The notes: a model not told the origin generated them from the sequence alone. Numbered from the stretch's first letter, positions 4,821 through 44,300 are shown. The stretch: 64,000 nt of DNA from Curvularia clavata (GCA_023920165.1 CP089275.1:5766001-5830000); one strand, 5' to 3'. A program made the numbers and translations.

Positions 4821-6425
4821 CTAATCAAGCTGAAGCCTACCCCATCTTTCAAGGACCTTTTCCTTGACATCTTCTGGGTATCCATTGCTGAAGTCACATG
4901 CAACCCATCCTTGCTTATTCTCATATTCGCTGGGTAGCAAGCAATTACTGACAACCTTACCACCTGTTAACTTTGTGCCTGGTCCGTGGCTCATATAAGG
5001 CACGAGGGGATACGCCGTGACGTCTTCAAAATGGAAGTCATCCATCCCTGGGCGACATCGTGTTGCGTATGCCCACATAACGTCATTGAAGCTAAAGGGA
5101 TCGATGTCGTCACCTACAATGAGAAGGCGATGGATCTGCATACCACACTTATGTCGAAACACCAAGTTGCCGACTCGCTCGCAGAATCCTTTAGCATCTA
5201 CCTTTAGCGCCGACAATGCTGCTCGGTCGACCTGCACAGCCGCCCAGATGACCTGTGATTCGTACAAAGCGAAGGCTTGTTTGACAGGGAAACCGTTGTT
5301 TTGCAACAGTTGCCGCATTTCCGCGGCAGCGAGCGTTCCAATCATCGTGTGCGTCTCATCTGGTCCAGACGCCTTTCCGGGCACGCAGATTGGAAGTATT
5401 GCGTCTTTTCTATGGGTGATCACAGATACAGTGTACAATGGCTGCTGTGAATTTTCGTCCAGAAAGCTGTATCCATGCATTTCTCCAAACGGACCCTCTG
5501 GCCCACGATCACGTACGGAAATGGTGCCTTCTAGTACGATCTCGCTGTTCGCCGGAACATAAATGTCGTTCGTTTCGCACTTTACCAACTCAAGAGGTGA
5601 TCCGCAGAGAGATCCTACGTACTCTGCTTCGGTGACACCAGCCGGAAGGGGCATACTCGCTGCCATAACAGCAATTGGAGGTGCGCCAAGCGCGATCGCA
5701 TACGGAACATCTTCACCTTTTTTTACCCATTCCTCGTAGATGCGCGCAATATGTTGAGGTTTCATAATAAGCCCTGCCATGCGAGTTTTATCATGAACCA
5801 TTGCACGTGCGATCGACCAATTTGTCCAAGGCTCCGTCGGATGCTGCAAGATGTTGATTCCGAGCGTCTGGATGTAGTTACCTCCATCAGCTTTATTAAG
5901 CAATGGCACAGGTAGTTCCGTCAGATTCACGTCTGGTCCTAGTATCTTGACCTCCTTACACGGCCCATCTTGGACGTGAACGGGGGGTATTGGCTTTTCA
6001 AACTTCGCCTTCAAAATAAAATCTATGATCTCCTTGGGTCCAGCATATGGCTCAAGACCAAGGTGCAGCGCTAGACGACGATGTGATTTTGTCGGATCCT
6101 TGGAGAGTCCACCAGGTGCACCCAAGATCCGGAAGAAACCATCATCGGCGCCTTTGACGTTATTGAACAAGGGCGCCCTCGAGCGACGTTCGTATGCGCG
6201 GCGTGTAATTGCAGCCACTTCCAGCTTTGGATCCACCTCTTCATTAATATCTACGAGATCGTTCTCTTTCCTGAGCGCATCCACAAACAAGCGAAAGTCG
6301 AGATGTGGAGCTGTAGAAGAAATTGTAGACTGCTGCCGAGTTGCGATCATGTGTAGGTTGAATGAATTCTTATGTGAATTGGAGGAATGCCGCTTGAGCA
6401 ACCTGAAATTGGTTCGGACACTCAT
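4821..6425 (-). CDS. FDC1: Ferulic acid decarboxylase (UbiD family, prFMN-dependent)
   Basis: Intronless ORF with UbiD/Fdc1 motifs WTNWSIAR, PEGPFGEMHGY, DETHT and DVMWAYATRCRPG. The start is ATG 6425 or ATG 6350. Confidence 0.95.
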   Translation of the reverse strand: MSVRTNFRLLKRHSSNSHKNSFNLHMIATRQQSTISSTAPHLDFRLFVDALRKENDLVDINEEVDPKLEVAAITRRAYERRSRAPLFNNVKGADDGFFRILGAPGGLSKDPTKSHRRLALHLGLEPYAGPKEIIDFILKAKFEKPIPPVHVQDGPCKEVKILGPDVNLTELPVPLLNKADGGNYIQTLGINILQHPTEPWTNWSIARAMVHDKTRMAGLIMKPQHIARIYEEWVKKGEDVPYAIALGAPPIAVMAASMPLPAGVTEAEYVGSLCGSPLELVKCETNDIYVPANSEIVLEGTISVRDRGPEGPFGEMHGYSFLDENSQQPLYTVSVITHRKDAILPICVPGKASGPDETHTMIGTLAAAEMRQLLQNNGFPVKQAFALYESQVIWAAVQVDRAALSALKVDAKGFCERVGNLVFRHKCGMQIHRLLIVGDDIDPFSFNDVMWAYATRCRPGMDDFHFEDVTAYPLVPYMSHGPGTKLTGGKVVSNCLLPSEYENKQGWVACDFSNGYPEDVKEKVLERWGRLQLD

Positions 6426-6553
6426 AGCTGCGGAACTTAACAATCGTGCGCTGGTAGTGAAGAGTATAGACAGAAAATAACCTGATCGTTCTTAATTACA
6501 GTCCGATAGATCTCTTCACTGCTTGCAGATTTAGAATCATCTCTACAACAATA

Positions 6554-6727: not shown

Positions 6728-6986
6728 TCTCGTATCTTGGTACGATCGCCCGTAGTTGGACACTTTAAGGTAGCCTAGCTACATAAACTATCTTTGTCAG
6801 AAGCCCCGAAGCGCTTAGAAGATGTGCTGCATTGTAGATCAGAGTGTACTAAGTCCTAATCTTTCGGATATCGGCCGCTTTGTGTGACATAGCCTGAGAT
6901 GTTTCCAAAACATGTCGTATCCTATATGCATGGGTATAGTTATATATGAACTTTGCCAGACAGAAATATGTATCTTATGTGCCTTT

Positions 6987-7736
6987 ATGTTCTCCCAAAT
7001 GCTTTGTCGTTGGTCCGGGGTCTTGACGCCCATTCATAATTTCAGGACTCAACGCGTACTTCCATACCACTTCGCTCTACGAACTAGTCGTTTTCAATCA
7101 ACTCTTCCACGTCCAATTCAGCGCAAACGCGTCATCGTCGCTGTAACTGGAGCTACCGGTGCTCCACTTGCCGTGGAATTACTTCAACAGCTTCGCAAAC
7201 ACAATGTCGAAACTCATCTCATCCTCTCAAAATGGGGGGCCTCGACTCTCAAATATGAACTTGAGGCACCACAGAACACAGTACAATACCTCAATTCTTT
7301 AGCAGATCACACCTATGCCGCCAGTGACGTTTCAGCAACCCTCTCGTCAGGATCGTTCCTTACCTATGGTATGATCGTGGTTCCATGCTCGATGAAAACC
7401 CTCGCTGGTATCAGAATAGGTTACGACTCTGACCTCATCACTCGTGCAGCTGGTGTTACTCTCAAGGAGCGACGGAAACTGGTATTGGTAGCGAGAGAAA
7501 CACCATTAAGCTCAATACATCTTGAGAATATGCTGGAAGTTACCAAAGCTGGTGCAATAGTCTTTCCACCGGTGATGGCTTTCTATACTCGACCAAAAGG
7601 AATAGGCGACATGGTAACGCAGAGCGTTATGAGAATGGTGGATTGTCTAGACCTAGCAGTCAAAGACGATAACCACGAAAATGGAAGATGGGGTGGGTTT
7701 AATTGGGAAGGGAAGAGTAGAGAAAAAACAGCTTAA
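6987..7736 (+). CDS. PAD1: Flavin prenyltransferase (UbiX family) with mitochondrial-type presequence
   Basis: Motifs VIVAVTGATG, SSGSF, VVPCSMKTLAGI, LVARETPLS and PPVMAFY, preceded by an Arg-rich N-terminal leader. Divergent from FDC1. The start is uncertain (6912, 6987 or 6999). Confidence 0.93.
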   Translation: MFSQMLCRWSGVLTPIHNFRTQRVLPYHFALRTSRFQSTLPRPIQRKRVIVAVTGATGAPLAVELLQQLRKHNVETHLILSKWGASTLKYELEAPQNTVQYLNSLADHTYAASDVSATLSSGSFLTYGMIVVPCSMKTLAGIRIGYDSDLITRAAGVTLKERRKLVLVARETPLSSIHLENMLEVTKAGAIVFPPVMAFYTRPKGIGDMVTQSVMRMVDCLDLAVKDDNHENGRWGGFNWEGKSREKTA

Positions 7737-8632: not shown

Positions 8633-9028
8633 CTAAAAGCTGCAGAACGCGCACTCAATTTCCAAGTTACTGACGTCCTTTGGCGCATCGCCAAAGAAGA
8701 TATCCACTACGTGAGTGTTCAGGTCGCAAGCAACATTTCCGTTCGCGTCGTTGCCGATTCGGCCAGTGAAAAGGCTGCAAGAGGCACCGGATAGCGTAAT
8801 CTGGATAGTTTTGGGAACAAAGCCAAAAGCGATAGAGTCTGGGTTATTGAGGATTGTAAGAGGTTGTTCCCCAGCACCGCCATCGATTTCACCAATGACG
8901 GTACCGGTTTGTCGCGCGCTGACTGTACGCCGGTTGCTGATTTGACGAGTGTCCTTGGGTGCTGTAGCGGCGGATGCGCCAGCCAGGAGGGCCGCAGTGA
9001 GCAGAGTGGTGATCTTGGAGCAGTACAT
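8633..9028 (-). CDS. Small secreted protein (131 aa)
   Basis: Signal-peptide-like MYCSKITTLLTAALLAGASA, a possible dibasic propeptide site (NRR), and 4 Cys in the mature region. Confidence 0.7.
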   Translation of the reverse strand: MYCSKITTLLTAALLAGASAATAPKDTRQISNRRTVSARQTGTVIGEIDGGAGEQPLTILNNPDSIAFGFVPKTIQITLSGASCSLFTGRIGNDANGNVACDLNTHVVDIFFGDAPKDVSNLEIECAFCSF

Positions 9029-9828
9029 TGCGATTGTTGTTTATTTTCTATCGTTTCTTCTAAGAAATCCCGAGAGAAAAGAGAAGAAAAATGATAGAAG
9101 AAGATCTGATTGTTTACTTGGTTTTGCTGTTGTATACTGAAGAGAAAGATGTCGATGAGATGGTTAAGTTATATAGAGCTCCCTTGGCGGCACTGATTAC
9201 GCTATAGCTGCGGCGGGCTGTGTATGGATGGTATCATAATGGCGCCAGCAACATATAATTTCATATCCATTGCAACCTTGTTTTCAAACCAATGTGCCAC
9301 CGGAGCAAAAACGTATCTCAAGCTAGCCCCAGCCATGTCAGCCTAGGTACCGGATTACGAACCCATGCAGAGATCAGGAAATTTTCCGTTAATCGTCCCG
9401 CAAACCAAGCTCTGGGTAATCTATTGTGAAAGGCGAGCAACGTCCAGTCAGAACCGTTCCGCTGACGTGATGCAGACCACCCGCGGCTACGTCATTCATC
9501 AGCAAGCGCAAAGGACAATGTGTTCGTCGCGCCAACAGACAATTTCGTCATGACATATCTTGTGAGTATTTTTAGTTTTGGCTTGCGTAAAAAGACTATA
9601 ACCAGAAGACGACTTTCACAAGCGCTACAAGACTATATATCAGATAAAACATTTGCATTGACTAAATTAGATTAAAGTAAAATTATGAAGAGAAATGATT
9701 TCTGCTAGGGATTGACAAAACTCCAGGCCGTGCGCAGCTGGGAATTGGATGTGTAGCTAGGTTTAGACTACCATCTCTTTTCAATCCATACAGCCTTTCT
9801 GCTACTGCCACACATGTGCTAATCCGGA

Positions 9829-12800
9829 TCACGAGTTTGACTGCGATATCCATTTGCGGCTCAGGGCGTAGTCTTCGAGCCTAAGTTCCTGTAGGTACTT
9901 AGCATTTGTCGAGTCCTGTGCATGACGAAGGAGGCCGACCTCGAATGATATTTTCCGATAAGCAGGAAGGGCTGTAACAACTTGGAAAATCTCTTTCCCC
10001 CCGGGGGTCTCGTTGATGTAAGAGTCAAACAGAGAAGACGTAACTTCAGGTGTGTTACCGTCGAACAGTGTCGATGTCGTGCAATTGGAATTCAAGCGAC
10101 TTAAGGGCTGGGTGCTACCAGTGCCGCATATGTTGTTTGCCGAGGGTGAGCCGAAGACGACAGAAGGTGGATGACCAGTCGCACTGTTCCCAAACTGGTT
10201 TGATGGACCAGCTGGGTCGCTAGAAGGTGAAGTTGAAGCAGATACGCTGGGGGAATTGAAAACGTTAGTTGGGTGATCAGGCTTCGCCAAAGTAGCCTGG
10301 CCGAAAAGACCACCCGTTGCTATGCTTGGCGCGTTGGAGATACTTGGAACGTTTGAGGTACTGCGGCCCCCGAAGAGATTTGGTGCCGGTGCAACTGTTT
10401 GTTTCATTGGTGTGGACGCTCGCCTAGAGGGTCCACTGAGTGTTGTAGTCTTTGCTCCTGTTGATGGGAGTGTTGTATAGAGATTGAAGTTGAAAAAAGG
10501 CTTGTTATTGGTCATATCAGTACTTGGAGCATCGAGAACGCTCTTAAAAGGTCGTGCTTTCGCTGCGGCTGACGGATCTTGTGCGGCTACTGACGGCTTC
10601 TGTATCACTCGTGTTCCAGTAGATGGGGGTGATTTTTCACCCAGAGTTGGTGGCTTTGATATGGCCTTTGGTGTTCGAGAAGCTGTATTAAAAATCTATT
10701 AGACTGGACTGACGTGCGATTGTGATTGGGCCACCAGGAAATGGACCTGCCGCATACTTACCAGGATGGAATCTTAATATGCCAAGTCCCTTTTCCAAAG
10801 TTTTCACACGATCGCTTAGTCTTGTTCTCTCTTGCATGGTCTCAACTGATTCCGCAGCGATAGCCTGAAGCTCGTCATCTTCCATGTCTCTTACTGTTGC
10901 CGATGAAAGTATCTTGGCTACGCCGGATAGCAAGCATTGCTCAATCGCCAAAGAAGCGACATTATTCATGAATGTGAGGATTGCTGACTAGATTCGGTCA
11001 GAAACGGAAGGTGCTCATGAACAAATCAATATCTAGGTGCGAGTATACCTCGTAATACGCTTCCATTACTTCGTAAGTCTCCAAAGATCCATATTTGTTC
11101 TCATTTGGAGCATCTCCGGCTGAAATCTTAGCCAACAACTCCTCGACAGAAGGCACCCCTTCCTCAAGATCAAGACTATCATGGACCGCTTCCACCACTG
11201 ACCGCGCCACTCTCTTTTCCCTCAATGCCCAGATGTTTTGGGCAAACTTTGGGTCGATACTGAGAGGGTGGTGATTGCGGTGCGGGGTGAGCAGCTCCTC
11301 AAGTTTTGTCTTCAGCTTCTGGCGCTGCTTTTCCAAGGCGGGGTCAATGATGTGGCTGGAAAGTAAGCGACTGGTTCTATCGTCGGTCAGGTGGCATAGA
11401 AGAGTTTCTAAGAATGCCTTGACAGAGTTCCATACCGCTTCCAGATGCTCGGATGCGATACTCTCCCATGGTTCGGATTGTTGTTGGAAGAGCGAGCCGA
11501 CCAAGGCTGGATTGGACATTCCAGGTAGTTCGATGGTTCTTTCCCGGTGCGCCAAAATATCTACATGACGCTTGAGAAACTCCGATTTCAGGATGATGTT
11601 AGGGTGAGTAGTACCCGTAACCAGCTTCGTATCATACTCCTCAACCACATGCCACTTGTGCCCTTGCTGGAGTATCTTAGTAGCAAATTTATCGTTTAGA
11701 TTGCGAACATTCGCTCGCAAGCGTTTCTCTAGGCCATCAGGGTCTAGAGGCTCACCAAAAAAATCTCTTCGGTGGTATCGACCCTCAAGTGCGTCCCTCG
11801 TATACTCACCGAAACTATCCGAGATGTCAAACAGATAATTGCGCATTTCCTTGACAGTAGAGCGCGCGTCTCCGAGTTTGTCCAGGTCTTTTTTGCTTTG
11901 AGTGAGATCTATCTCAAGGCGGTCGACGATGGATGGGAGGCTGAGGGAGATATGATTGATAAGCATTTTGCTGAGCTTTCGGCGTAGACTGTCAATGCCA
12001 CGACCCACGTCACGTGTTGGCAAAGGCTGCCAGCTGCTTTTCTTGAAGAAATCGTTCTCGATTGCATCTCGTTCTTCTAGAGACTTGTTTTGCTCCGCAA
12101 ATGATCGATTACGAACAACGTGCCTAGAGAAGACAAGACCACATCAGCAACTAGAGCGTATCTCAGGGTTCAGATGCGGAGATTGTCACATACCAACCGT
12201 ATTTGAACTTGGCTGTATTTGAGCGAGCGTACTCTATACACTCTTGTTCCTTTTCCGACCCTTGGGGTAGCTCGTCAGGCTTGGTTATGATCCCGAGTGT
12301 GCGGTCGGTGGCTCCGTTGATCTTCTGTATGCTCGTTAGGATAGCCTGAAGCCTAAGGTCGTTATGCGCCGAGACGACCGCAAGAATGATGCTGTTTGGC
12401 TCCCCCATATATTTTCCGACCAGGTCGTTGATCAGCTCAATGTCCCGCGAGCCGGATGGAGCATCGCTATGATGAATAACTCCGGGAAGGTCCACCAGCG
12501 TCAACGGGACAAGTTTTGGACCCATTATCTCGACCTCGAGTACGTGATCGAAGAATTCGGATTTGTCATCGGAGTTTTGGCTCATGACGTTGCGCGCACC
12601 CGCAACGAGGTCTGCAAACTTCTCTGGCGCATCGAACGATTGACTGAATTCTGAAAGTCGCTCTGCGGTTTCAGCATCTACTGTGGGCCCGGCCTTAATT
12701 CGACAACTAATTCGAGATTGTTGCTCCCGGCGTAGGCGAAGTTCGGTAGGAAAGCTTGTGCATGTGGTGCTTTTCGTTGGAAAGCGTACGCGGGTGAGAG

Positions 12801-12990
12801 CCTCAAGAACCGAGCTTTTGCCAGAAGATTGATCTCCACAGACAATAATCTGTGGAAGTCCTTTCCCCTCCAGCAACCTTCCGATTCCGAGAGAGCGGAG
12901 CTCATCGATAGCATCGAGGAGTTGACTGTCGTCATTGGAGAGGAGTTGGTGGAGAGTTGTTCCCTCTAGAGCTGATGTGTGCTCTGCCAT
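9829..12990 (-). CDS. Mx-like dynamin-family GTPase (about 966 aa, 5 exons) with C-terminal FG-like low-complexity tail and GLEBS motif
   Basis: G1 LPQIIVCGDQSSGKSS, G3 LVDLPG, G4 TKPD, then stalk and GED regions. Exons 12990-12194, 12123-11049, 10987-10762, 10682-9940 and 9888-9829 are joined by GT-AG introns and total 2901 nt in one frame. Confidence 0.88.
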
Positions 12991-13745: not shown

Positions 13746-14123
13746 TGTTAAGAGTAAGGGTCTCAGGCGGAAGTAATACAAGACTTCGGTGCTAGAGCTC
13801 TCAGGGTTGGTTTTCGCGGATAAAGCAACAGTATATTATGAAGAAAGGTTCTGCAAGTAACTCGTGTATTATACTTGTACTCGTAACTTAAGTTAAACAC
13901 ATCGAGCTATACGGGTTCGATATCTATTCCTATATACTTAATCTTCATTCCATATATTCTATGTTATGTCGCGTTGTTCCATGCGTGGTACTTTGTAGAA
14001 CGTAAAGAACATATAGAATACACGTGACTTGTTCTATAGTGGCGTTCCGCCAAGCGCGTGGAACGTAGGGCTATATTATCGTTATTAGCTGATATGCGGT
14101 TGTGAAAGAGATAGGTCTTGACA
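13746..14123 (-). mobile_element. Probable RIP-degenerated LTR of an older retroelement
   Basis: Begins TGTTAAGA and ends TCTTGACA (imperfect inverted ends). It is followed by a pyrimidine run that is PPT-like on the minus strand, and the sequence is TpA-rich. No matching TSD. Confidence 0.4.
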
Positions 14124-14291
14124 TAGGCTTCTTCCTTCCTTCTTTCTATATCTTCTTGTGGTGCCCTCTTCTTAGGTTCGTAATATAAAGTTACTATAAG
14201 TATTATACTAGATTAGCGGTATACTTCTCTAATATTTAATCTAGATCAGAGCCAGTTAGTACATTAATAGTAAGTAGTATAATATTATAAT

Positions 14292-14500
14292 TGTTAGACT
14301 GTTAGTGGCGTGAAGGTACAGCACGAGATAGATAAGAGAGAACTATGCTTTAACAGCCATGTATTCACGAGACGAATCGCTATCGAGCACCTCTAGCGAT
14401 CGTAGAGGCTTTATAGCCTTAGGTAAGCCCTAGCTAACTAACTAGCGTGAAGAAGGAGGGAATTAGACCAACATGTCCCAATTTAGACCAGGTCCTGACA
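14292..14500 (-). repeat. 3' LTR
   Basis: TG...CA ends. Differs from the other LTR at 6 positions, all TpG/TpA (RIP type). Confidence 0.93.
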
Positions 14501-15093
14501 ATACCTCCCTTCTTAGGGTGCAGCTGTCCCAGCTGCGCAACTTATCATGCTTACCGCCCAGTTTGAGCGGTTACTAGGTGATGCCGCCGTGTGGGTTAGA
14601 GGGTGTATTTTACTTGCTCACCGCCCCAGGGCTATAACGTCATAATAGCGGAGTTTTGCGCTACTACCTAGCCGACTGCCCCACTTTGGGCCAACCCGGC
14701 CCATCAGAGTACTCCTGGGCAGCGCCAAGAGTCACGTGACGCGCTAATTTAGTGCGGATCCAAGGATACAATAGCCAGTTTTTGACTAAGCCCAGTACAC
14801 CCTACAGTCCACCAACCCCACTTTAGTAAGTAGACTCCCATTTTATAGGTCTTCTCAGTTTAGGCCCGACACCTTCCACCCACGGTCTGTTTGCAACAGT
14901 TTGGCCCAATTTAGGCCAGTTTGCAGTCGACCTTAGTTTTATTACCTTTTTCTAAGGTTCTTCCCCTAGACTTAGAGTTTTCTGCTAACTTTTCTTTTTA
15001 GACTGTTTCCTCCCATACAATCCATTTCACGACAGATTCGACCAATTCGTCCCAAACACCCCCAAATTAGGGCCTTCAAGACCCACTTGAACC

Positions 15094-16159
15094 ATAACGA
15101 ACGCACTTAGATCCGTCAACCGCAGTACAGTATCAAACCTATTCATACGCAAAGGCCAGAGGTCTTACTACGCTTATATATACTGTCTGAACGCCTTCAG
15201 AAATAATAAGCCCGTTACTTTTAGCAGAGCGGGTTGCGTTATATTAGACATCAACAATCCTAAAGTAGCTGAGGCTTAGTCTAGCTACAAGGTTGAACCG
15301 GAGTCTAGCAGTATACCTAGGCAGGTGATAAAGTGTCTTCGCTGCTCTTACATCAACCATATCTGTTTTGCGGTAAGTTGCCCTATTTTACTCTAATTTA
15401 GTCCAATTTGGAGCTAAATAAGTAGTTAGGTGCCTCCTCCCGACAAGTTCTCCCCCAACTAGATAAGACTTGGCCAGCTCATTAGGAAAGTTGAGGATAC
15501 CTTCCATACCATTAACAAAGATATCCCCGAGGGTGCCAATAAGACTAAAGTTCGTACTAAGCGCAGGGAAATATACGAGGTAGCCGTTACTAGACTTAGT
15601 ATATTCAGCAAGCCTATTATTAAGTCACTCAAGAAGTAAGTAATCCAATTTTCCTAAATCTAGCCCAAATTAGACTAATTTGTATAGATTTGAGCCTCAT
15701 GCTACTCATCTGTCTCTTTCCTCTAGTACCATCGAGAAGGAAGATGATCCCCGCTCTAGTATAAAGACTTCTGCCCTTAGCCGCTCCAAGAAGGATAAAG
15801 AAGTCAAGAGGAAAGCTCATAAGATCGAGGTGGAAACTTTAGTCGAGGCAAAGGTCAAGAAGTCCAAGTATGGCTCTAGTGGGCGCAAGAAGGAGATTTG
15901 TAATCCTTTTCCCCCCTATTTACGCCAAATTGCCCCAATTTAGACTAACTTGGTTCTTTAGGTCAAGATTGCCGAGGATGTCACTAATAAGCTTCAGAAG
16001 CGCATTAATAACATTAATAAAGAGATTTTGCAAAAAATGTCTGAGAAGAAGAGGGCCAAGGGTCAAGCCAAAAGGAAGATCACCAATAACATCAAGAACT
16101 TAGAAAAAGCCAAGACAAGGCTTAACAAGGAGTACGAGGCCACAGTTACTAGTAATTAA
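15094..16159 (+). pseudogene. RIP-mutated, spliced, antisense extra gene inside the Gypsy element (Cys-motif N-terminus, Lys/Glu-rich C-terminus)
   Basis: Four exons are separated by introns 15373-15429 and 15636-15687 (both GTAAGT...TAG) and about 15896-15961 (donor G>A). Splicing keeps a single frame with KCLRCSYINHICF. There are two in-frame TAG stops, and the start is probably ATG>ATA. Confidence 0.6.
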
Positions 16160-16479
16160 GGGTAGTTGGGTCTAGTTTTGTCCGTTTTAGCCCAAATTGG
16201 GTTAGTATAGGCTATAGTAGTTTTCTTCCCTTTCATATAAGATACCCAGAGCATTAGAATAGAGGTAATAATTGAAATTCTCTTTTCTTTACTTTTCCAT
16301 TCCTTAGTTTTTATTATGCAATATCAGTTCAACATAGACCAATTTGGGCCAGGTTGCCCTAATTAGCTTATACCGTTAAACACCTATAAAACCCTTTAGA
16401 GAAAAAAGTAGGTAAAAGTACATACACTAATTTAGCTCCTATTAGCCCTATTTGGCCCATTTTGGCCCGCGTCTGCGTC

Positions 16480-19400
16480 GAGGGACCTAATTTAATTTAT
16501 TCCAGAACTCTTAAAGCGTTTTCTAAGTAACATTAGCAGCTAGCTCCCATATATTTTCAGAGTCGGGGTATCCAGTCTATTTCACTAAGTATTCCCACTA
16601 ATCATCCTTATTCTTCCTATGTCCTACTATTTTGTCCACGAGGTAGACATCGTCGCCTGTCTCGCCTAGTTCGTGTTGTATTAGGACTTCAGGATATGGT
16701 ATATCACCTAGGGGGTGATACTGCTCTAGTAAGGATGCATAGAACACTAGGTATACATTTTTTAGACCAGGCATATCTACTTTAAATACTAATAGGCCGA
16801 TTTGCTCAGTTATTATGCCTGGGCCAACGTATTTCCAGTCAATCTTCTTCTTTAGTCACAGGGATTTAATATGCTTATTAGATAGCAGTACTTTATCCCC
16901 TACCTTAAAAGGAATAGGTTATCTTTTCTTATCTGCGTGCCGTTTTTAGTACTCTTACGCTTTTAGAATATTATTCTTACACTCTTATTATATTTCGATT
17001 ATTCTTGAGACAGTACTTGCCGCTAGGGGGTTTTCGCCCCCAGTTTAGGCGTCTTTAGGCCATTCTACGCCTCTTAGGTGTATGCCGTTGCATGCTTAGA
17101 AGGGGGTAACCTTAGTAGTCGAATGTACACTATCATTATACGCGTATTCCCCTACTAAAATCCATAATACCCAGTCGTCCTACTCTAGAGAACAGTAGCA
17201 GCAGAGGTACTATTCTAGAGTCTAATTTTAGCATTCAGTCTGGCCATCTATTTATAGGTAGTATGCCGAAGTAAGTACACGTTTCGAGTTAAGGTAGTGA
17301 AAAAAGGTCTTCCAATAGATAGAGTTCATTAAAGGGCCTCTATCTAATATAATTCAGCGTAGTACGCCATAGAGACGGATTACTTCGCGCAACCATACCT
17401 AAGCTAGGTCTACTCCGTCCCAATTAGACCGTGCTGGCACGTAATGGGCCATTTTGGTCAGTCTGTCGACTATCACGAGAATTGCGTCGTATACTACGCC
17501 TTGCAGTTTACTTAGTAGCAATTCAGTTATAAAGTCCATTATTACTTCCTCCCAGGCTCTATTAGGTAGTGGTAATGGTGCAAGGGGCCCGTATGGCAGG
17601 TGCCGTTTCGGGGTAGATTTTTGACAGATAAGGCATAATTTGCAGTAGTCTTCCACGTCTTTCCTCATGCCAGCCCACTTATAGTGGCGCATTAGTTTCT
17701 CTAATGTGCGTCTTGCGCCAAAATGTCCAGAAAGCGGGTCGTCGTAACCTTATTTTAATGCTGCTGCTTTTTCCTGTGCCGTCTTGGGCACGGTTGGGCT
17801 AGAGTGGCCCTGTTTAAGCCTTTGTAGACTTGGTTTGGCCACGTCGTCTTCTTCTGAGCTATATGAGTCCGAAGTGTATTCGTCCGTCTCTAAGTCGGCC
17901 TCTTGAGCCAATGCTGCATGCCTCTGGTCTTCATATTGCTTCGCTGCTGTATTCTGCCGTCCTTGTGATCGTGTGGTGGTAGCTGCAGCTATAGCAGTCC
18001 CTTCAGCATTAAATTTGAGCAGATGGCGTAGCGATGGCACATATGCGCTATTATTCTTCTGCTTTAGCTCTTAGGCGGCTTTTATGTAGTCGGGTCTGCG
18101 CGATAGGCCGTCGGCGGGGTTTATTTTCCCAGATTAGTGTACAATTGTAAAATCAAAACCTAATAGGGCTAAGTAAGACCATACCTGGCAGTAATTCAGT
18201 ATTTTAGTTTCCATAAACCACTTCAGGTTTCGATAGTTAGTAATTAGATTAAAGTGTATCCTATCAAGATATCTTCGCCAGTGTTGGAGACTAGCGACGA
18301 TAGCTAGTAGCTCTTAGTCATACGTATCATAGTTATACTCCGCGGCGATTAATTTGCGCAAGTAGAAGTCTACGGGTCTCCAGCAAGCCTCTTTAGACAC
18401 GTACTAGCTTAGGATACCAGCAATCGCTCCTCCCAACGCATCGACCTATACTCTAGTCTAATTGTCTAGATTAAAATAGATTAGGATAGGTACTGCTATA
18501 AAGGAGTTTTTTAGCGTCTTAAACGCGCTCTTAGCGTTTTCGTCTAGAATTAGCAGTACGCTTTTCTCTTTTCGCTGAGCTTTACCCCCTTTAGCGGCAT
18601 TCGGCTCCTTTTTCAGTAACTCAGTTAAAGGCAGTGCGATTCTAGAGAAGTTAGCAATAAATCAACAATAGTAGTTCATAAAGCCTAGAAACACGCAGAC
18701 ATCGCGCACTATACGCGGTTCTAGCCATTCTTAGGCTATTTTAGCCCGATCTGGGTCGATACTTATACCCTCAGGGCTAACTATGTAGCCAAGGAACTCA
18801 GTATATTAGATATGCCATTCACACTTCGAAGTCTTCAAATACAGCTTAGCTTCGCGCAATCTATTTAAGACTTCGCGCACATATCTCTCGTGCTCCTCTT
18901 CTATATTAGAGAACACCAGGATATCGTCCAAATACACAATACAACTCACATCTACCAATCCTACAAGAATATAGTATATATACGCCTGAAATTATACAGG
19001 AGCGTTTATAAGACCAAAAGACATCACAGTATACTCGAAATGGCCGTATCTAGTGCAGAAGGCTATCTTCCACTCATCTCCCTCCTTAATCCTCACCCTA
19101 TAATATGCTTCTCGGACGTCTAGCTTAGTATAGAATTTTGCCTCAGCCAATCTATCCAAGGACTCCATAATCAAGGGTAAAGGGTGACAGTTTTTAAGCA
19201 TTATATTATTTAGACCTCTATAGTCCACACATAACCTCATCATACCGTCTTTCTTCTTCGCGAAGAGTATTAGTGCGCCTGCTAGCAACTTCAAATATCT
19301 AATCCACCCTCTCGCGAGATACTCACGCAAGTAATCCCAGAGTAGCACTAACTCACTCTTCGAGAGCCCATATAGCGGCTGATATAATAGCGTAGTACCT

Positions 19401-21366
19401 TCTTTCAAAGTTATCACCAAATCGTGCGGGCCATACTCAGCAAAGCACTTAGCATCCTCTTCCAAAGCCAAATCCGCAAAGTCCTCATACTATAGTGGCA
19501 ACTAAGACAACTTAGCTTAATCAGGGCCAACCTAGGCGTTCTTAGACTTCTCCAACCCCTCCCAGTCCTCTTCCTCATCGCTTAGGTCCCAACCCATCAC
19601 AGTAGACACTTTAAGCGCGTAAACGTCCGTCGTAGACGTTCAGAGTATTTTCTCAAACTCTTCAGCGCTTTCTATCGCGATTTTCTCATATAAAGCCCTA
19701 TCTACATATTTCACGCCCCTAAATAGCACTCGACGCAACCAGAGGCTTATTTTAGACTTATAGAAATCGACCCAGGGCATACCTAAGCATACTAGATAAT
19801 GCTTCATTTCTATCACCACAAAAGGTATATTCTAGACTTTAGTCCTCCCTCTTATGTCTATAACTTTCATAGTCACCTCTATAGTACCATAAATCTCAAA
19901 CTCCGCACCGCTTAAGGCTTCTACCACTAAGTTCGGTATAGGAGTTATTGTTAAATCGTGATCCTTAGCTTAGTAGATTAAGAGTAGATTTAGTTAAGAC
20001 CCTCCATCTATCAGCGCTTCGAGTGGATCTTGGCCAATTTACACCATTATAGTCAATAGTAGGCTAGGTTTGCTAAACATTGCTTCGCGAAGTGTCTTCA
20101 AGTCCTCTTCTAGCTCTAGCCTTGCAATATAGGCGGAGAGTAGGGCTACTAGGTTCTCCACCCCTTACCTTTTTCCAGTTTAGGTTCCTCAGGTGCCACT
20201 TAGCTTTATTTGTGCTTACTACAGTTCCTACTAATATATCCAGATTCCCCGCAGTTGTAACAAACAATTTTGCCCTCTACATCGCGTCCTCAAACCTTAT
20301 TTGCCGCGTATAAACCTTTTATATCCGCAGAGTTCCATCTTTGTTTTTTCAGAGTTTTTTCGTACCCTCTTATATTCTTTAGTAGTGTGCCGCTCCTAGC
20401 TTACTTATTCTGCGTTATTCTAGCGTTGCTAGACTTCTCTCTTTTCATTCTATCCCAGATAAGTCGCGCTCGCGCGTTTAGGTCTGAGATTATACTTCTT
20501 TAACCTAGTTCGAGTAAAAGCAACTCTTTCTATATTATCATTATCAAAGCGCCCATAAAGTCCCTCACTCTCTACTCTTCCGAGTAGGCATTACCCAATT
20601 CAGACCAAAGTATATCCAATTTAGCCAACAAGTCGTTTAGGTCCTAAGACCAGTCCTATCTAATATATTTGAGAGCTCGGTGGGCTTCAAGCTTCCGCTA
20701 TTCTAGTAGTCCCAGTAAATCCACCATTACAGTCTTCAGGTCTAGCCACGTGGGTGTCCAATTCGTGTCTTTTCTACAGTAGTCGTAATAATAGGCGTCC
20801 CATATAGAGCGTAGAGGGTCAGTGATATACCTAAGCCCAAAATCAATCTTAACTACCTCTGTTTAGAACGTTTTAGGGCTTCCCCTAAACGTTACCTCAC
20901 ATTCGCGTTCCCAGCGATTGTACTCAGCACGATCGCGGCTTATAAACTGTGTTAGTTTTTCTAGTCGTAGAGCTCCCACATTTAGTTCTAGTTATATCCC
21001 CACCGCACGGTGTGGTTCATATAGGTCCTCTGTCAGTGCTGTCGTGTCACCTTAGTCAAACCGACGCTTGATTTCCTAGAGACGTTTCAGTTCTTACTCG
21101 TCAAGCGCTCGTTGCCTCCAAGCGCGCAGTTCGTCTAGCTGTTGAGCAATGGTGGTCTGAGGTGGTTCAAGTCGAGCTAGGCTGCCCTGAATTGGGCTTC
21201 TCTATACCAGTTCGGCCTAATCTGCCTCCGTAACGGCAGGCTCGGATAGTTCACTTGAAGATGGCTAGATTAAGTCTCTAGTTAGAGTGGGCTATGAGTC
21301 CCCTACTACCGTGTTTCAAGTTAACCTTGGGCGGCTCCGAGTTTGGCGACTACCTGGGTTCGGCAT
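16480..21366 (-). pseudogene. gag-pol polyprotein remnants (Gag-CCHC, PR, RT, RH, IN, chromodomain)
   Basis: ORF-track fragments 18992-19471 (RT) and 17399-17692 (IN), plus motifs read by eye. The 3' end is approximate. Confidence 0.9.
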
Positions 21367-21413
21367 AGCTCTCTCTGACATCTCGTAGGTGTACTTAAGG
21401 AGAGCGATTCGAA

Positions 21414-21622
21414 TATTAGACTGTTAGTGGCGTAAAGGTACAGCACGAGATAGATAAGAGAGAACTATGCTTTAACAGCCATGTATTCACGAGACGAATC
21501 GCTATCGAGCACCTCTAGCGATCGTGGAGGCTTTATAGCCTTAGGTAAGCCCTAGCTGACTAACTAGCGTGAAGAAGGAGGGAATTGGACCAACATGTCC
21601 CAATTTGGACCAGGTCCTGACA
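21414..21622 (-). repeat. 5' LTR
   Basis: Near-identical to 14292-14500 and followed by the TSD ATAAT. Confidence 0.93.
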
Positions 21623-22069
21623 ATAATATCTCTAGAGACGTCTTAAGTCTCTAGATAATAGAGCATTTCTAGATACTCTAATGTCTCTAGACTATATAGT
21701 ATTCTAAGATAATAACTAGTCTTAGAACTTAGTCTATAATATAAATAAAAAGACTTCTTTTTTTCAAATTAACTATAAATTATAGAAGAGTGTATAGACA
21801 ACATTAAGACGAAGATTATCGGCATCAGAGATTGCAATTCTGTTAGGCAATGATCGTTATTAGAGAATTTTTAAAGATAGTAGCTCTATATCATCGTGCT
21901 TCCACAAAAGCTTCAGCGCAGTCGCAACCCCAACCTGTTCAGTCCTTCATATCGGCTTGAGCTTAGGTTGTATCTGAGAGCTCTTGAGGGGTCTGGAGTG
22001 TCTTTTATCTAAAGATTGGTGAAAATGGTCCGCAGGTTGATGCAGCGATACACTTACGAGTGGTAAGCC

Positions 22070-24348: not shown

Positions 24349-24913
24349 ATGTCAGGTAGTACTTAACGCACTAACAATGTGTACGCCAGCGAATGGTCGC
24401 AAGTTATAGCTATTATAGTCCACGGATCACTATATATACTTTATTTCGATATAAGTATGCTTAGTAAACAATAGCTAGGCCTAGGCGATATACTCAACGG
24501 CCTGCCAACTACCAAGGACATGCCATTTAATGCGTACTAGCGATAATATGACCTAATCTACCCATATGATACCCGTGTCAAATTCCTCTACAAGATATAT
24601 AATCAGGCCAATAGAGTATATCTACTGTAGATATTCAAGCTAAATAGCTTATCTGGTACTAGTAAGTCTACAGTAGCGCAGACAGTAGCCGCACAGCAGT
24701 ATAGACAAGATTGGTTTGTGGCGAGCTTCTTCTTATTGTAAGATGGTAGAGAAGATGGGTATTAGCATAGCGCAAGGGGATTTATAGTAACTATTATAGT
24801 ACGGCTTACTAATAATATATATAGTGTAAAGTAGATAATATAGAAACAACATATTTATCTAGCGAGCTAGTTAATAAAATAAACTAGTTACTCTATTATA
24901 ATCTTGTTAACTT
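24349..24913 (+). pseudogene. RIP-degenerated NACHT-domain (HET-E-like NLR) gene relic, abutted by the Fot1 insertion
   Basis: The frame from 24487 reads DILNGLPTTKDMPFNAY*R*YDLIYPYDTRVKFLYKIYNQAN...IFKLNSLSGTSKSTVAQTVA...FVASFFL. This parallels the HET-E-type consensus (TRVxLL...IFWLNGLAGTGKSTIARTVA...LGASFFF), with G>A/C>T decay. Confidence 0.7.
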
Positions 24914-24915
24914 TA

Positions 24916-26777
24916 ACGTACCTCACGGGTTCGCGGTCCACACGGGTTCGCGGTCCACTTTTGCCAAGACCCCACCAAAATACCTACTACCCACAAATGT
25001 TACAACAACAACAGCAGTTACAGCCTTCTAGTGAATGTCAAATACAGCTTGCTCTTCAAGCTCTCAAACAGGACGCGAATCTCTCAGAACGACGCGCTGC
25101 AGCTCTTTATAACGTCTCTCGAACAACACTACGTCAAAGACGCGACGGACGGGATTCACAAGCAGATCGCAGGCCTAAAACAATGAATCTAACTAAGCTT
25201 GAGGAGGAGGTGGTTGTTGAGCATATTCTTGATCTTGGTTCACGTGGATTTCCCCCTAGGCTCGCAGATGTGGCTAATATGGCCAATTCCTTGCGCGCTG
25301 AGCGCAATTTGGGCCAGGTTGGCCAAAACTGGCCCAGCACATTCGTTAAGCGCCGCCCTGAGCTTAAAGTAAAGTTTAATCGCAAGTATGACTACAAGAG
25401 AGCACTCTGTGAGGATCCTAAGGCTATTCAAGACTGGTTTGGCCTAGTAGCCAATATGAAAGCCAAGTATGGTATCCAAGATGACGACACGTACAACTTT
25501 GACGAGACAGGCTTTATGATGGGCCAGATTACCCCTGGAGCAGTTGTTACAGCTTCAGAGAGACGTGGACGGCCAAAGACTATCCAGCCTGGCAATAGAG
25601 AGTGGGCGACGGTTATCCAGGGCATCAATGCGACCGGGTGGACGATTCCGCCCTTCATCATACTTAAGGCGCGCCACCACCTCTCAAGCTGGTACAAAGA
25701 TGGAGATATACCCCAGAACTGGGTTATTGGAGTCTCTGAGAACGGCTGGACGACCAATGAGCTTGGTCTTGCGTGGCTAAAGCACTTTGATGAGCATACA
25801 AAGAAGAAGGTGGTAGGTACCCACCGTCTACTCTTTATTGACGGCCATGAGAGCCACAACTCGCTGGATTTCCAAAAATACTGCAAAGATAACAAAATTG
25901 TTACTCTTTGCATGCCTCCACACTCGTCTCACCTCTTACAGCCGCTTGATGTGGGCTGTTTTGCCCCTTTAAAGCAGGCCTATGGGCGCCAAGTCGAATC
26001 GCTCATGCGCACCCAGATCAACCACATCACCAAACAAGAGTTCCTACCTTGCTTTAGGCGGGCTTTTGACGCATCATTTATAGCTAGCAATGTCCAAGGA
26101 GGGTTTCGAGGCGCTGGATTGGTCCCATTTGACCCAGAACGGGTCATATCCGCCCTTAATGTCCAGTTGCGCACTCCATCACCCCTACCTGTCGATACCC
26201 AGCCCTGGCTGTCGCAAACCCCGAGGAATACCCTTGAAATAGGGTCGCAATCGACGCTAGTGAAGCAGAGGATTCAGAGGCACCTAGACAGCTCACCAAC
26301 GTCTATGGTGGAGGCTTTTGAGAAGGTCTCAAAGGGGGCAGCTATTATCGCGCATAAGCTAGTGTTGGCACAAAAACGGATTAGTGAGCTTGAAGCAGCT
26401 AACGCAGCCGCCACGCGACGAAAATCGCACAAAAGAAAGCGGGTTCAGGCAGAGGGGACCTTAACAGTTGAAGATGGGGCGCGCTTGACTGCTCTCCAGG
26501 ACTTTGGGGTGCGTAGTGATGGGAAGAAGTCAAAGAAGCAGAAGCGCGCTGAAGTGGGTGAACCGTCTCAACGGCGGTGTGGACGGTGCAATAGGACTGG
26601 GCATAACGCGCGAACGTGTAAGAATGAAGCAGAAGTAGGCTCTGAATAGTATTTTATGTTTTTTTGCATTAAACTGGCCAAGGTTGGGCTGTATTAGGCC
26701 ATAATGTGGTGGTTTTGGTGGGGTCTTGGCAAAAGTGGACCGCGAACCCGTGTGGACCGCGAACCCGTGAGGTACGT
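24916..26777 (+). mobile_element. Intact Fot1/pogo (Tc1/mariner superfamily) DNA transposon
   Basis: Perfect 65-bp TIRs (24916-24980, 26713-26777) starting ACGT, each with an internal cacgggttcgcggtcca duplication. TA target duplication on both sides. Length 1862 bp. Confidence 0.96.
24997..26649 (+). CDS. pogo/Fot1 DDE transposase (550 aa)
   Basis: HTH regions, YNFDETGF, LFIDGHESH, HLLQPLDVGCF and a C-terminal CGRCNRTGHNARTC knuckle. Uninterrupted. Confidence 0.95.
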   Translation: MLQQQQQLQPSSECQIQLALQALKQDANLSERRAAALYNVSRTTLRQRRDGRDSQADRRPKTMNLTKLEEEVVVEHILDLGSRGFPPRLADVANMANSLRAERNLGQVGQNWPSTFVKRRPELKVKFNRKYDYKRALCEDPKAIQDWFGLVANMKAKYGIQDDDTYNFDETGFMMGQITPGAVVTASERRGRPKTIQPGNREWATVIQGINATGWTIPPFIILKARHHLSSWYKDGDIPQNWVIGVSENGWTTNELGLAWLKHFDEHTKKKVVGTHRLLFIDGHESHNSLDFQKYCKDNKIVTLCMPPHSSHLLQPLDVGCFAPLKQAYGRQVESLMRTQINHITKQEFLPCFRRAFDASFIASNVQGGFRGAGLVPFDPERVISALNVQLRTPSPLPVDTQPWLSQTPRNTLEIGSQSTLVKQRIQRHLDSSPTSMVEAFEKVSKGAAIIAHKLVLAQKRISELEAANAAATRRKSHKRKRVQAEGTLTVEDGARLTALQDFGVRSDGKKSKKQKRAEVGEPSQRRCGRCNRTGHNARTCKNEAEVGSE

Positions 26778-41374: not shown

Positions 41375-44300
41375 TTACTTCAATTTGTTCCTTCCGCTAC
41401 CGCCCAATATCATCTGCTCAATCACATCCCTCTCCCCACTCTTGGCCAGCATGTCACGAAACGCTGCATTGCTCTTCATAAGTCTGGCTGGTGTGTCGCA
41501 CTCGCCACGCCCGTCGTCCATGACAAGGACCTTGTCGAAGTCTGCAATGGTGCTGAGGCGATGAGCAATGACAATCAGTGTCGAGTCTTTGAACTCGTCA
41601 CGGATCGAGCGCTGGATTTTCTGATCCGTTGCCATATCGACGGCTGACGTGGCCTCATCGAGGACCATGATGCGAGGGCGCAACACCATAGCGCGTGCTA
41701 GGCACAGCAGTTGCCGCTGACCCTGTGAAAGATTGAGCCCACCGCGGGCAATTTGGGATTGCAGGTTGCGGAAGATGTTGACGTTGGAGCCTGGTACGTC
41801 TTCATCTTCGTCATCGTCTAGGTCTGAATCGATGAGGTGGACACGACGAAGCGCATCCTTCAGTTCGCCGTCGCTGTGTTTGTCAAATGGGTCGAGGTTG
41901 GAGCGCAACGTGCCCGAAAAGAGAACAGGGTCCTGCGGGATGATGGCGAGTCTGCTGCGGAGATCTGAGAGGCGGATCTTAGAGATGTCCACGCCATCCA
42001 CCATGATGCTGCCCTTCTCTGCCTCGAGAACGCGGAAGATAGCAAGTGAGAGAGACGACTTGCCACTTCCAGTACGGCCTACGACGCCCACACGTTGGCG
42101 CGCTGCGATCGAAAAGGAGAGGCCCTTCAGAACCAAAGGTAGTTCGGGCGCATACTTGGCGTTCAGGTTCCTAACCTCCAATCGTCCTTCCCTCGGCCAA
42201 TCATGTTCGACCGGGTTGCCAGAAGGGTCTTCCGTCTTCATCTCTGTGTACTCGACTACTCGCTCGGCAGAGTTCATGTCAAGCTCAAAGCTGGTGTAGC
42301 GGCTGATGGTCTCGATGGCAATGTATGAGTAATCGAGCACAAAGCCCAGCGTGAAGCCTGCAAGGGAGGCGCTGATGCCGTCAATACTGATGACGACGGC
42401 AGCAACGACAAAGGTGAAGATGCTACCAGACAAACCCTGTCGGAAAGACATCCAACGGGAAGCAAGAAGCAGATGCCAAGTTGTACGGCCGTAGTCATCG
42501 ATGCGATCAAACATGCGGTCCATGTACTCGTCCACCTTGCCAAAGCTACGCACCGTAGCCAGACCTGCCAGAGAAGAGCCCAAAAGTTCGAAAATCGGTG
42601 ACTTTGCATTGCTCTCTAACCGCTTGATATCTCGCACACCCTCGAGATATACATTGGCGTAATATAGACTGACCACGGCAAATATGGCTATGGGAGCTAT
42701 CATCATCAGCGAGACAAATAATGCTGATCCAATAATGGTGATGATGATCAAGAACCCATGGAAGGCCCAGTTGAAATCTCCAGCAAGACGCGAGTCCACC
42801 AGTGCAAAGTCACTGACGAACCGGTTCATGATGCGGCCGGTAGGAACAGTGTCCAGCCAGCGTAGCGGCGCTCGAAGGACTGTGTGCGTGATGGTTTCGA
42901 ACAGTTTGCGGGAGGCCCGAATCGATGCTCGCAGAACCATTAGGGACTTGACAGCGATAAGAAGTGCTGCCAACGCAGAAAGAACGATGTATACAGCGAG
43001 GTAGTATTTGATTCCGCGATGATCGGCGTCCGGTGACGACTGCGCCTTGGCAAGGTCCTTTTGCGTCCAGTGCTTGACCCAGTACGACCGGCCCAGCATC
43101 GATAGGGCAGAAACGACATAAATGCTAATCACCAGAGTCCAGTACTTGGTACCGCCCGAAGAGCCCATATAGACCTTGAACACGTTTAGCCTAACTCGAC
43201 CCTTCTCTCTGAATTCATCTTGCACAAATTTCATGGGTGCATCGGCTTTTTTGGTATCGTCCAATTCGACGTCGTTCAAAGCAGCTTTTGCATTGTCTGA
43301 CGCAGCAGTCTGAGATGAAACATGCCCCAAAGACTTGAGTGTGGGTGTGTGACGGGTAGCTCTCCTCACTCCTCCCTCACCCAGCTCTACGATGTAATTT
43401 GCCAAGGACGAGACCAGGCCGACGTGATGTGTGACGAGGATGCGCGTTCGCCCTTGCATGAGGTCTCCATGGAGAGCATGATTCAGAATGTGCTGTCCAA
43501 CATGGGCGTCTACGGCACTGAAGATGTCATCGAGCACGAGAATGCCGGCGCGAGAGTACAATGCGCGGGCCAGTGTCACTCTCCAGCGCTGGCCACCGCT
43601 GAGATTGATACCACTTGCGCCAATCTCTGTGTCTTCACCATCCGGTAGCATATCCAAGTCCTTGGTCAGCGCACATGCGTCGAGCACTTTGCGATAGCGC
43701 GACCTGACGTAAGGCAGTCCGAAGAGAACATTGTCCTTGAGCGATGCATTCTCAATCCAGGGGATCTGGGCGACAAAACCCATCAGAGACGGGACAATCC
43801 AGTCATGCTGTGAGATGGCGATGGGGGCATGATGATGACTAGAGGGTGGTCGGGGTGCGCTAACGCTGCCTGAAATGATATCGGCTTCACCGAGTATGGC
43901 TGCCAGCAGAAGACTCTTGCCCGAACCCGTTTTGCCATGAACAACACTGAATTCGTTATTTGGAAAGCGCAAATTGATGTCTCTCAACCGAAAGGAACCC
44001 TCAGCCTCGTTCTGCGAAGGCCACGAGATGGTAGCATGTTCGAAGGCCACACAGTCTCCGGATTGGGGTGGCTTGCGTTCATTGGGTTGTTTGAGATGCT
44101 GCTCGATTCTAGAAAGACTTACTTTTGCGTCTAGCAGCTCGGTAATAGTGGTGGGGACAACGCTGAGGGTCCATTCAAGGCTGGAAAAGACGGAGAGAGC
44201 CGTGAATGCAATGGCGGGAGTAACGGAGCCGTTGATCCAGGCGTAGGCACCCAAGGCTGCGGCTCCAAGAAGAATCGGCATGGACAGCCACGTAAATGTC

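Follow-up and report, generated by a model that had tools for sequence, protein, structure and literature searches.

An Mx-like dynamin gene of Curvularia clavata with a C-terminal tail ending in a Nup98-type GLEBS core

Mx proteins are the classic antiviral GTPases, and their fungal relatives, the MxF group, were named only in 2025, as proteins of no known function (Langley et al., PNAS 2025, PMC11789081). They are uncharacterised Mx-like dynamins of very variable copy number, built from a GTPase domain, a middle region and a GTPase effector domain (GED); in the main text of that paper the terms nucleoporin, FG-repeat and disordered tail each have no occurrence. A link between an Mx protein and the nuclear pore is provided by human MX2 (MxB), which, according to one preprint, gathers phenylalanine-glycine (FG) nucleoporins into decoy condensates that mimic the pore and trap capsids, and in this way restricts HIV-1 and HSV-1 (bioRxiv 10.1101/2023.06.22.545931); RAE1 does not occur in that paper. 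Here we describe a gene on the minus strand (12990-9829) of a 64,000-nucleotide stretch of the Curvularia clavata genome (GCA_023920165.1, CP089275.1:5766001-5830000; hereafter the window, counted from its first nucleotide), in which an Mx-like dynamin is joined to a tail related to the nucleoporin Nup98 and ending in the core of a Gle2/Rae1-binding sequence (GLEBS).

MX2, an Mx-type GTPase-stalk protein, is the best solved match to the GTPase domain of the C. clavata product (PDB 4whj, E 2.1e-24), and it too has a disordered extension, through which it is linked to FG nucleoporins. In MX2, however, the extension is N-terminal, about 90 residues long and not derived from a nucleoporin, and it recruits FG nucleoporins in trans, whereas here it is C-terminal, about 267 amino acids long, of Nup98-96 descent and GLEBS-bearing. 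With the MxF proteins the window product shares the succession of GTPase, middle and GED, and its own nearest solved relative is Mx. With Nup98, Nup116, Nup145N and SonB it shares an FG tract followed by GLEBS, with the same core and the same pair of glutamates, but it lacks both the PF04096 domain and the Nup96 part, its GLEBS sits at the extreme C-terminus rather than embedded in the FG domain, its tail is poorer in FG and more highly charged (14% as against 2.5%), and the N-terminal arm of the motif is poorly conserved. A first-pass annotation, made from the sequence of the window alone, had stated that no description of such an architecture was known. In a literature search that lacked most subscription journals we likewise found no account of FG repeats or GLEBS joined to a dynamin or Mx protein. 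The architecture is not unique to this genome, since filamentous ascomycetes of three or more classes have annotated proteins that show it; the fusion proteins thus exist as database entries with precomputed Pfam matches and, as far as our searches reach, seem not to have been described as a class.

The gene model, assembled by script, comprises five exons and four introns with a coding sequence of 2901 nt that specifies 966 amino acids, starting at an ATG at 12990 and ending with a TGA at 9831-9829 on the minus strand. The product reads, in order, Dynamin_N, Dynamin_M, GED and then a tail of 267 amino acids rich in serine, threonine and proline, with the Nup98-type GLEBS core at its end. Exon 1 (12990-12194, minus strand, as are all exons and introns below) contains the start codon and a dynamin-type GTPase domain, matched by Pfam Dynamin_N at E 1.5e-30; exon 2 (12123-11049) encodes the middle or stalk region (Dynamin_M, E 3.8e-19) and exon 3 (10987-10762) the GED, which at E 5.4e-4 and 20.5 bits falls slightly below the 21.4-bit cut-off but reaches 22.8 bits in the orthologue from Periconia digitata (P0002). 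Pfam was run on single exons of the window, with the tail submitted unspliced. The translation of exon 1 contains GDQSSGKSS (the P-loop, G52-S60, at 12811-12837), DLPG and TKPD, corresponding to the P-loop, DxxG and TKxD elements; across ten orthologues DLPG and TKPD do not vary, and conservation of the P-loop is 90% or more. No pleckstrin homology (PH) domain was reported by Pfam in the window exons or in the relatives examined. Against the PDB, Mx2 and Mx1 provide the top eight of the 43 matches to the GTPase exon, entry 5uot as well as 4whj being among the Mx2 matches, followed by Vps1 (2.8e-19), Drp1 (1.8e-18) and dynamin-1 (about 1e-13), so that for this domain Mx leads Vps1 and Drp1 by some five orders of E-value. 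Some relatives are also named 'Mx' by their sources. The label 'Mx-like' therefore rests on the GTPase domain, the PH-less domain order and the names of relatives, and for the GTPase domain the first-pass assignment is upheld.

The tail was proposed at first pass to end in a sequence resembling the GLEBS of Nup98 and Nup116, created by removal of a 51-nt in-frame intron, and both statements stand. We built a GLEBS profile from 46 non-redundant fungal Nup98-96 segments and scored it on a local set of 535 sequences. The product with intron 4 (9939-9889; GTCGGC..CAG) spliced out scores 24.6 bits (E 4.9e-7) over residues 931-959, whilst the product that retains the intron scores 8.4 bits (E 0.057); none of the remaining six-frame open reading frames (ORFs) of at least 60 amino acids in the window exceeds 4 bits. 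The intron is stop-free, has a weak donor with a plausible branch site and acceptor, and falls between the two GLEBS glutamates, so that the core (9853-9990 in all) is divided between the last 17 codons of exon 4 (9990-9940) and the first part of exon 5 (9888-9853), after which exon 5 (9888-9829) adds seven residues and the stop. The glutamate pair is kept in the window product, and the equivalent residues, E201/E202 of Nup98 and E154/E155 of Nup116, form salt bridges to Rae1 or Gle2 and abolish binding when mutated (PMC3783196).

Searches with orthologues lead to the same family. When the C-terminal 46 residues of P. digitata were compared with the PDB at E up to 10, all eight matches were Nup98 over its Rae1-binding sequence, the best being 3mmy_B (E 0.031; query residues 17-41 on chain residues 31-55), and Bub1 or Mad3 chains were absent among them. 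Pfam PF21240 (Nup98_GLEBS) matches these same residues at E 7.9e-4 and 19.9 bits, under its 27-bit cut-off, over profile positions 20-39 of 39; the unspliced tail of the window gave no match to PF21240, and the C-terminus of Melanomma found no Nup98 in the PDB but five weak unrelated matches. With our own profile the best domains reach 41-63 bits in Trichoderma dynamins and 27.7 bits in Penicillium robsamsonii (P0154). The core is also conserved out of proportion to its surroundings. Between the window and P. digitata the dynamin part is 87% identical and the tail 39-46%, yet the GLEBS core is 66% identical (19/29); for Melanomma the corresponding values are 61%, 18-20% and 54% (14/26), and 89% identity of the dynamin part to Periconia was also recorded, by which measure the fungus is close to that genus. 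Such an island of conservation within a fast-changing disordered tail is characteristic of a short motif that is in use.

That dynamin part and tail form a single gene, as the first-pass annotation held, is borne out by comparison with related gene models. All four introns are GT..AG. Introns 1 (12193-12124; 70 nt, GTATGT..TAG) and 2 (11048-10988; 61 nt, GTATAC..TAG) give junction residues that agree with the orthologues, in the first case with both Periconia proteins. Intron 3 (10761-10683; 79 nt, GTAAGT..CAG, phase 1, with a CTAAT branch-like site near its end) splices in frame from the GED into the tail, where its junction, ...FHP|ASR..., is identical in the proteins of Periconia macrospinosa and P. 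digitata; if it is retained, translation meets a stop at 10688-10690. Taken together, the residues joined by splicing are those of the P. digitata protein in all four cases and those of P. macrospinosa in the first three, and the annotated P. digitata model has intron 4 spliced. Exon 4 (10682-9940) encodes 247 amino acids rich in S, T, P, A, G and N, probably disordered and with four FG motifs. The reading frame of the tail (9829-10695) is open for 288 codons, for which the chance expectation, (61/64)^288, is about 1e-6, and the plus-strand ORFs listed across the same span reach 73 amino acids at most. A separate tail gene is unlikely, because the frame opens only 13 nt upstream of the acceptor, the first methionine comes 57 residues into the tail, and the residues before it are already 39-45% identical to the Periconia orthologues.

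Among longer proteins the stalk exon finds 28 relatives, headed by P. macrospinosa (910 aa, 85% identity) and P. digitata (949 aa, 83%). Of the eleven inspected as full proteins, five have long tails after the GED: both Periconia proteins, Melanomma pulvis-pyrius (1061 aa), Amniculicola lignicola (979 aa) and Glonium stellatum (1099 aa); that of Neocucurbitaria is shorter. Four further models, from Lindgomyces (P0004), Massariosphaeria (P0006), Pleomassaria (P0009) and Clohesyomyces (P0011), are short and end or drift after the conserved proline as glycine followed by K, M or N, which is the translation expected of an unspliced G|GTAAG or G|GTATG donor such as that of the window. We infer that these four Pleosporales models missed an intron homologous to intron 3. 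The tails of the family are thus probably under-annotated in databases, and many public models seem to end at the post-GED intron, or ahead of the last small exon, and so to hide the tail. Among the short models overall a read-through-donor ending was found in 4 of 46 by fixed register, and on visual inspection it is shown only by the four short Pleosporales models that end directly after the GED; many distant short models may truly be tail-less.

The co-occurrence of Dynamin_N and GLEBS in fungal proteins, put forward at first pass as a check, could be confirmed. A phmmer scan with the P. digitata protein returned 7556 relatives at E<=1e-3, of which 1220 also pass E<=1e-30; the best 150 of the 7556 were examined. 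GLEBS scores of at least 8 bits occur in 22 of 197 dynamin-type proteins, where the motif is in every case 4-79 residues away from the C-terminus; none of the other proteins scores above 2.2 bits. The bearers comprise P. digitata and Melanomma in the Dothideomycetes, Coccidioides posadasii, P. robsamsonii and Talaromyces stipitatus in the Eurotiomycetes, 15 Trichoderma proteins in the Sordariomycetes, and one further cluster of two proteins. FG tails with no detected GLEBS were seen in Aspergillus, Cudoniella, Podospora, Lasiosphaeria, Conoideocrella, Akanthomyces, Staphylotrichum, Xylona and Cercophora. In a FastTree phylogeny of 136 GTPase-to-GED cores (midpoint root, tails excluded) the proteins with GLEBS are spread over four or more distinct clades. 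Since truncated gene models confound the distribution of tails, one ancient capture cannot be distinguished from several.

The origin of the tail is clearest in Trichoderma. The tail of T. atroviride P0128 (residues 741-1151) gives 74 matches at E<=1: 19 are dynamin-type proteins, all from Trichoderma and 18 of them with precomputed Nucleoporin_FG, and the other 55 are Nup98-Nup96, Nup145 or SonB proteins, all with PF04096 and with a best E of 1.4e-8; nothing else was matched. The GLEBS core is present in 54 of the 55 nucleoporins and in 15 of the 19 dynamins, in nearly the same wording. Homology thus places the ancestry of the tail in Nup98-96, and the module as a whole is, on the same grounds, derived from the N-terminal part of Nup98/Nup145N/SonB, that is, an FG-containing disordered tether with GLEBS at its end. 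The Trichoderma dynamin motifs are closer to Sordariomycete nucleoporins (19-26 shared positions as against 15-17), whilst the window motif is no closer to the Nup98-96 proteins of its own class, sharing 11-15 of 36 positions with all.

A nucleoporin-like FG tail had also been claimed, and here the verdict is mixed. NLFGG, GLFGQ, NQFGN, VVFGS, TLFDG and SLFDS are all present, together with NVFNS, and the ancestry is that of Nup98-96, but FG is sparse and charge high. Schmidt and Görlich (PMC4283134) describe Nup98 FG domains as 400-1000 residues long, with FG at a median density of 9 per 100 residues and with charge on about 2.5% of the residues. Across the 45 FG- or GLEBS-bearing tails that we analysed the ranges are 0.9-5.7 FG per 100 residues and 5-22% charged, and Nucleoporin_FG rises above its cut-off in relatives such as P0020 (3.3e-10) and T. 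atroviride P0128 (2.9e-9). The pore-anchoring, autoproteolytic PF04096 domain was not found by Pfam in the window exons or in eight relatives. The tails of the family thus descend from Nup98-96 yet fall short of Nup98-grade cohesive FG domains, and in the lineage of the window, where the FG part is thin, GLEBS appears to be the conserved working part. No tandem repeats were found in the DNA of the tail. The unspliced tail found no homologue at E<=0.01 among 7992 scored candidates from longer proteins, and in the PDB it matched only a ribosomal protein (E 0.32), which we judge to be chance; for the P. digitata tail the ESM Atlas gave no usable feature match, with structure matches at TM <=0.21.

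What such a protein might do is suggested by its parts. Assembly through GTPase domain and stalk is established for Mx proteins, and by analogy the C. clavata protein would self-assemble in the same manner. The assembly would display many flexible tails of about 240 amino acids, the terminal GLEBS of each capturing Gle2, so that the whole would come to resemble the Nup98-Rae1 face of the nuclear pore. It might then sit in or beside the FG phase of the pore, or build pore-like decoys in the cytoplasm, and intercept particles or proteins, for example capsids of retrotransposons or factors of viruses, that depend on engaging FG nucleoporins or Nup98-Rae1. The device would amount to a built-in version of the recruitment of FG nucleoporins by human MX2. 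Published observations make a role as bait or decoy the most attractive reading: in addition to the MX2 condensates, the FG region of Nup116 binds Gag3 of Ty3, and Ty elements exert evolutionary pressure on nucleoporins, according to one study (PMC5918913), and the heterodimer of Rae1 with the Nup98 GLEBS is a target of unrelated viruses, through the M protein of vesicular stomatitis virus (VSV) and herpesvirus ORF10 (PMC7604486). We therefore tentatively favour, as something a little short of probable, a single gene of the MxF kind whose Nup98/Nup145N/SonB-derived FG/GLEBS C-terminus acts as a pore mimic or decoy. The fusion itself, its conservation, its Nup98-96 ancestry and the selective retention of GLEBS are observed.

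Several results weigh against this interpretation. The window aligns only with the C-terminal arm of the motif, columns 43-83 of an 85-column GLEBS profile, at 23.0 bits; a full GLEBS has about 57 residues in two arms, of which the N-terminal one is represented in the window at best by a faint P-x7-F-x7-P spacing, whereas the Trichoderma tails align on both arms, from column 3, 5 or 23 to column 78, at 59-73 bits. The stalk exon taken alone carries no Mx-specific signal, its sole PDB match being dynamin (E 0.0039). The unspliced tail matches Nucleoporin_FG only at E 0.37 and, with four FG in 267 residues (1.5 per 100, as against 9) and 14.2% charged residues (as against 2.5%), it does not have the composition of a cohesive FG domain of the Nup98 type. 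The tree requires nine changes if GLEBS alone is counted, and 22 if every tail with FG or GLEBS is. The solved complexes of Rae1 with GLEBS are 1:1 (PMC7604486), which makes docking through Gle2 questionable, because Gle2 could then not form a bridge to the GLEBS of a nucleoporin; the motif would therefore hold a Gle2 of its own and either mimic or compete with the Nup98-Rae1 module. Finally, six sequencing runs gave matches, all of small extent, and among the four that were compared in detail (X3 and X4 are RNA libraries, the kind of X1 is guessed and that of X6 unknown) no contig or joint bridges intron 3 or intron 4, so that splicing is neither shown nor refuted by them. The contigs of X3, a root metatranscriptome, lie within exon 4 (two, on 9962-10243) and that of X4, another metatranscriptome, within exon 2 (11340-11593); X1 covers 10096-10308 and 11354-11523, the four pieces of X6 are every one inside exons, and DNA carry-over is possible in the RNA libraries. 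Three metagenome loci were found for comparison, none extending into the tail.

On the N-terminal arm one further observation can be made. SLFDS, and perhaps TLFDG, lie at 9991-10060 on the minus strand (residues about 905-930), where that arm would be expected. Both had been listed at first pass among the repeats, and both are present, but from the faint P-x7-F-x7-P spacing shared with the nucleoporin consensus the SLFDS...TP segment may be a diverged N-terminal GLEBS arm rather than degenerate FG repeats.

The main rival to a pore mimic is a brake on export, in which the GLEBS, rather than placing the GTPase at the pore, would titrate Gle2 off Nup98-96, so that induction or assembly of the protein would slow the export of mRNA or pre-60S particles. 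Such slowing could belong to a response to stress or to abortive defence, with retention of intron 4 as a possible switch. It earns this place because over-expression of the Nup98 GLEBS brakes export in HeLa cells, where RAE1 is displaced from the nuclear envelope and poly(A) RNA accumulates in the nucleus (PMC2133102). The 1:1 stoichiometry suits it, and so does intron 4, which is in frame, has a weak donor and when retained destroys the motif. In T. stipitatus, moreover, one gene has two annotated isoforms (P0042/P0252, EED18554.1/EED18555.1) that are identical over 859 residues. A G-K junction of read-through type closes the shorter isoform and a GLEBS-like motif of 13.5 bits the longer, which hints that inclusion of GLEBS may be alternatively spliced. 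A simple Gle2 sponge does not explain why the GTPase-stalk machine and the FG tether have been retained alongside the motif in many lineages, and we consider it unlikely, if well worth keeping in view. A housekeeping role is more improbable still: a dynamin-like mechano-enzyme near pores, engaged in membrane remodelling, pore assembly and turnover or the handling of messenger ribonucleoproteins with no part in defence, would agree with the established membrane remodelling by dynamin-family proteins, with the origin of the tail in a pore protein and with the sheer size of the family. The nearest solved relatives, however, are Mx proteins rather than membrane-fission dynamins, there is no PH domain, the tail is patchy, 64 of the 136 tree models being short-ended, and the copy number of MxF genes is reported as highly variable, with genes missing in some fungi (PMC11789081); patchiness and variable copy number fit poorly with an essential pore function. 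To much the same low degree we credit the idea that the fusion worked in an ancestor and is now decaying, with an FG tract eroded in the lineage of the window and a tail that has lost any specific role. Only four FG remain in the window and three in P. digitata, as against 11-24 in the GLEBS-bearing Trichoderma tails, motifs resembling FG changed to FD or FN are present, the tail has diverged far more than the dynamin part between the same two species, and in a related strain the tail differs by two amino-acid changes and one silent change, the dynamin part by two silent changes. Set against this, the 288-codon frame is intact, the 681-nt contig of that strain crosses the tail without a gap, and the GLEBS core of both P. 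digitata and Melanomma is conserved well above its surroundings.

Two other explanations appear very improbable. Were the gene model an artefact, the dynamin gene would stop at 10688 within the supposed intron 3 and the tail would be a separate gene or non-coding; the lack of RNA contigs across 10683-10761 and the several orthologue models that end shortly past the GED are what this would predict. It is opposed by the position of the opening of the tail frame, its late first methionine and the conservation that precedes it, by the G+K/M/N endings of the short Pleosporales models after the conserved proline, which look like an unspliced GT donor, and by the occurrence of the dynamin-tail join in models of different annotation projects from Periconia, Melanomma, Amniculicola, Glonium, Coccidioides, Penicillium and 18 further Trichoderma proteins. 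The other arises from the fact that Bub1, Mad3/BubR1 and BuGZ bind Bub3, a paralogue of Rae1, through GLEBS motifs of their own, so that the motif might tie the GTPase to the kinetochore and the spindle checkpoint. The P. digitata motif matches Nup98 chains and no others in the PDB, and also the Pfam Nup98_GLEBS family; it is placed after an FG tract as in Nup98, and the only non-dynamin relatives of the Trichoderma tail are Nup98-96 proteins. This is, by a little, the least credible of the readings considered.

If the pore-mimic reading is carried further, these proteins could be widespread and so far unrecognised effectors of ascomycete innate immunity, Mx-like GTPases with a Nup98-Rae1 mimic, an FG tether plus GLEBS with Gle2 bound to it, carried in cis as integrated bait. 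An oligomerising GTPase would then catch, ahead of the pore, those retrotransposon capsids or viral proteins that have to engage FG nucleoporins or Nup98-Rae1, as a convergent, hard-wired counterpart of the MX2 decoy condensates, and the in-frame intron within GLEBS could act as an on/off switch. We regard this extension as possible but doubtful. Plant NLR (nucleotide-binding leucine-rich repeat) integrated decoys, in which a host protein targeted by pathogens is fused as bait into an immune receptor, offer a parallel in that Rae1-Nup98 is also a pathogen target (VSV M, ORF6, ORF10); they differ in protein family, kingdom and signalling, and the role of the present tail as bait is hypothetical. 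Fungi, to our knowledge, have no interferon system. The recurrence of the fusion across moulds points to an undescribed device of defence or control linked to the nuclear pore, in which the connection between Mx and pore is encoded within one gene and has been kept in Dothideomycetes, Eurotiomycetes and Sordariomycetes. It offers a testable handle on the role of fungal Mx-like proteins, on whether defence by mimicry of the pore is ancient and recurrent, and on how fungi police retroelements that are obliged to cross an intact nuclear envelope, and it flags a systematic annotation error in the public models of the family.

The gene lies between an Fdc1/Pad1-like pair with a small ORF on one side and a lower-GC stretch with a DDE transposase ORF on the other, with a nonribosomal peptide synthetase (NRPS) cluster farther along; no WD40/Gle2 gene was found within the window. 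The pair consists of a UbiD-family decarboxylase at 4824-6491 on the minus strand (UbiD_N, UbiD and UbiD_C, with UbiD at E 2.8e-67) and, divergent from it, a flavoprotein at 6888-7733 on the plus strand (PF02441, E 4.4e-39), presumably arranged like the phenylacrylic-acid decarboxylase pair Fdc1/Pad1 of fungi. An ORF of 135 amino acids (8636-9040, minus strand), immediately downstream of the dynamin gene, begins with a hydrophobic stretch resembling a signal peptide, is not matched by Pfam, and may encode a small secreted protein. On the promoter side, 14001-22000 has a GC content of 0.418-0.436 and no ORF of 200 amino acids or more, and after it comes an ORF of 588 amino acids that contains a DDE_1 transposase domain (24883-26646, plus strand; E 7.1e-32), so that this part looks like a transposon-affected region. 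Beyond it, 33720-63692 is a probable secondary-metabolite cluster, containing ORFs similar to pyrroline-5-carboxylate reductase and to 2-oxoglutarate-Fe(II) oxygenase, an ATP-binding cassette transporter (41378-46099, minus strand), a GC content of 0.63 at 44-46 kb and a multi-module NRPS spread across ORFs at 46912-63692 on the plus strand with repeated adenylation (A), condensation (C) and PP-binding domains.

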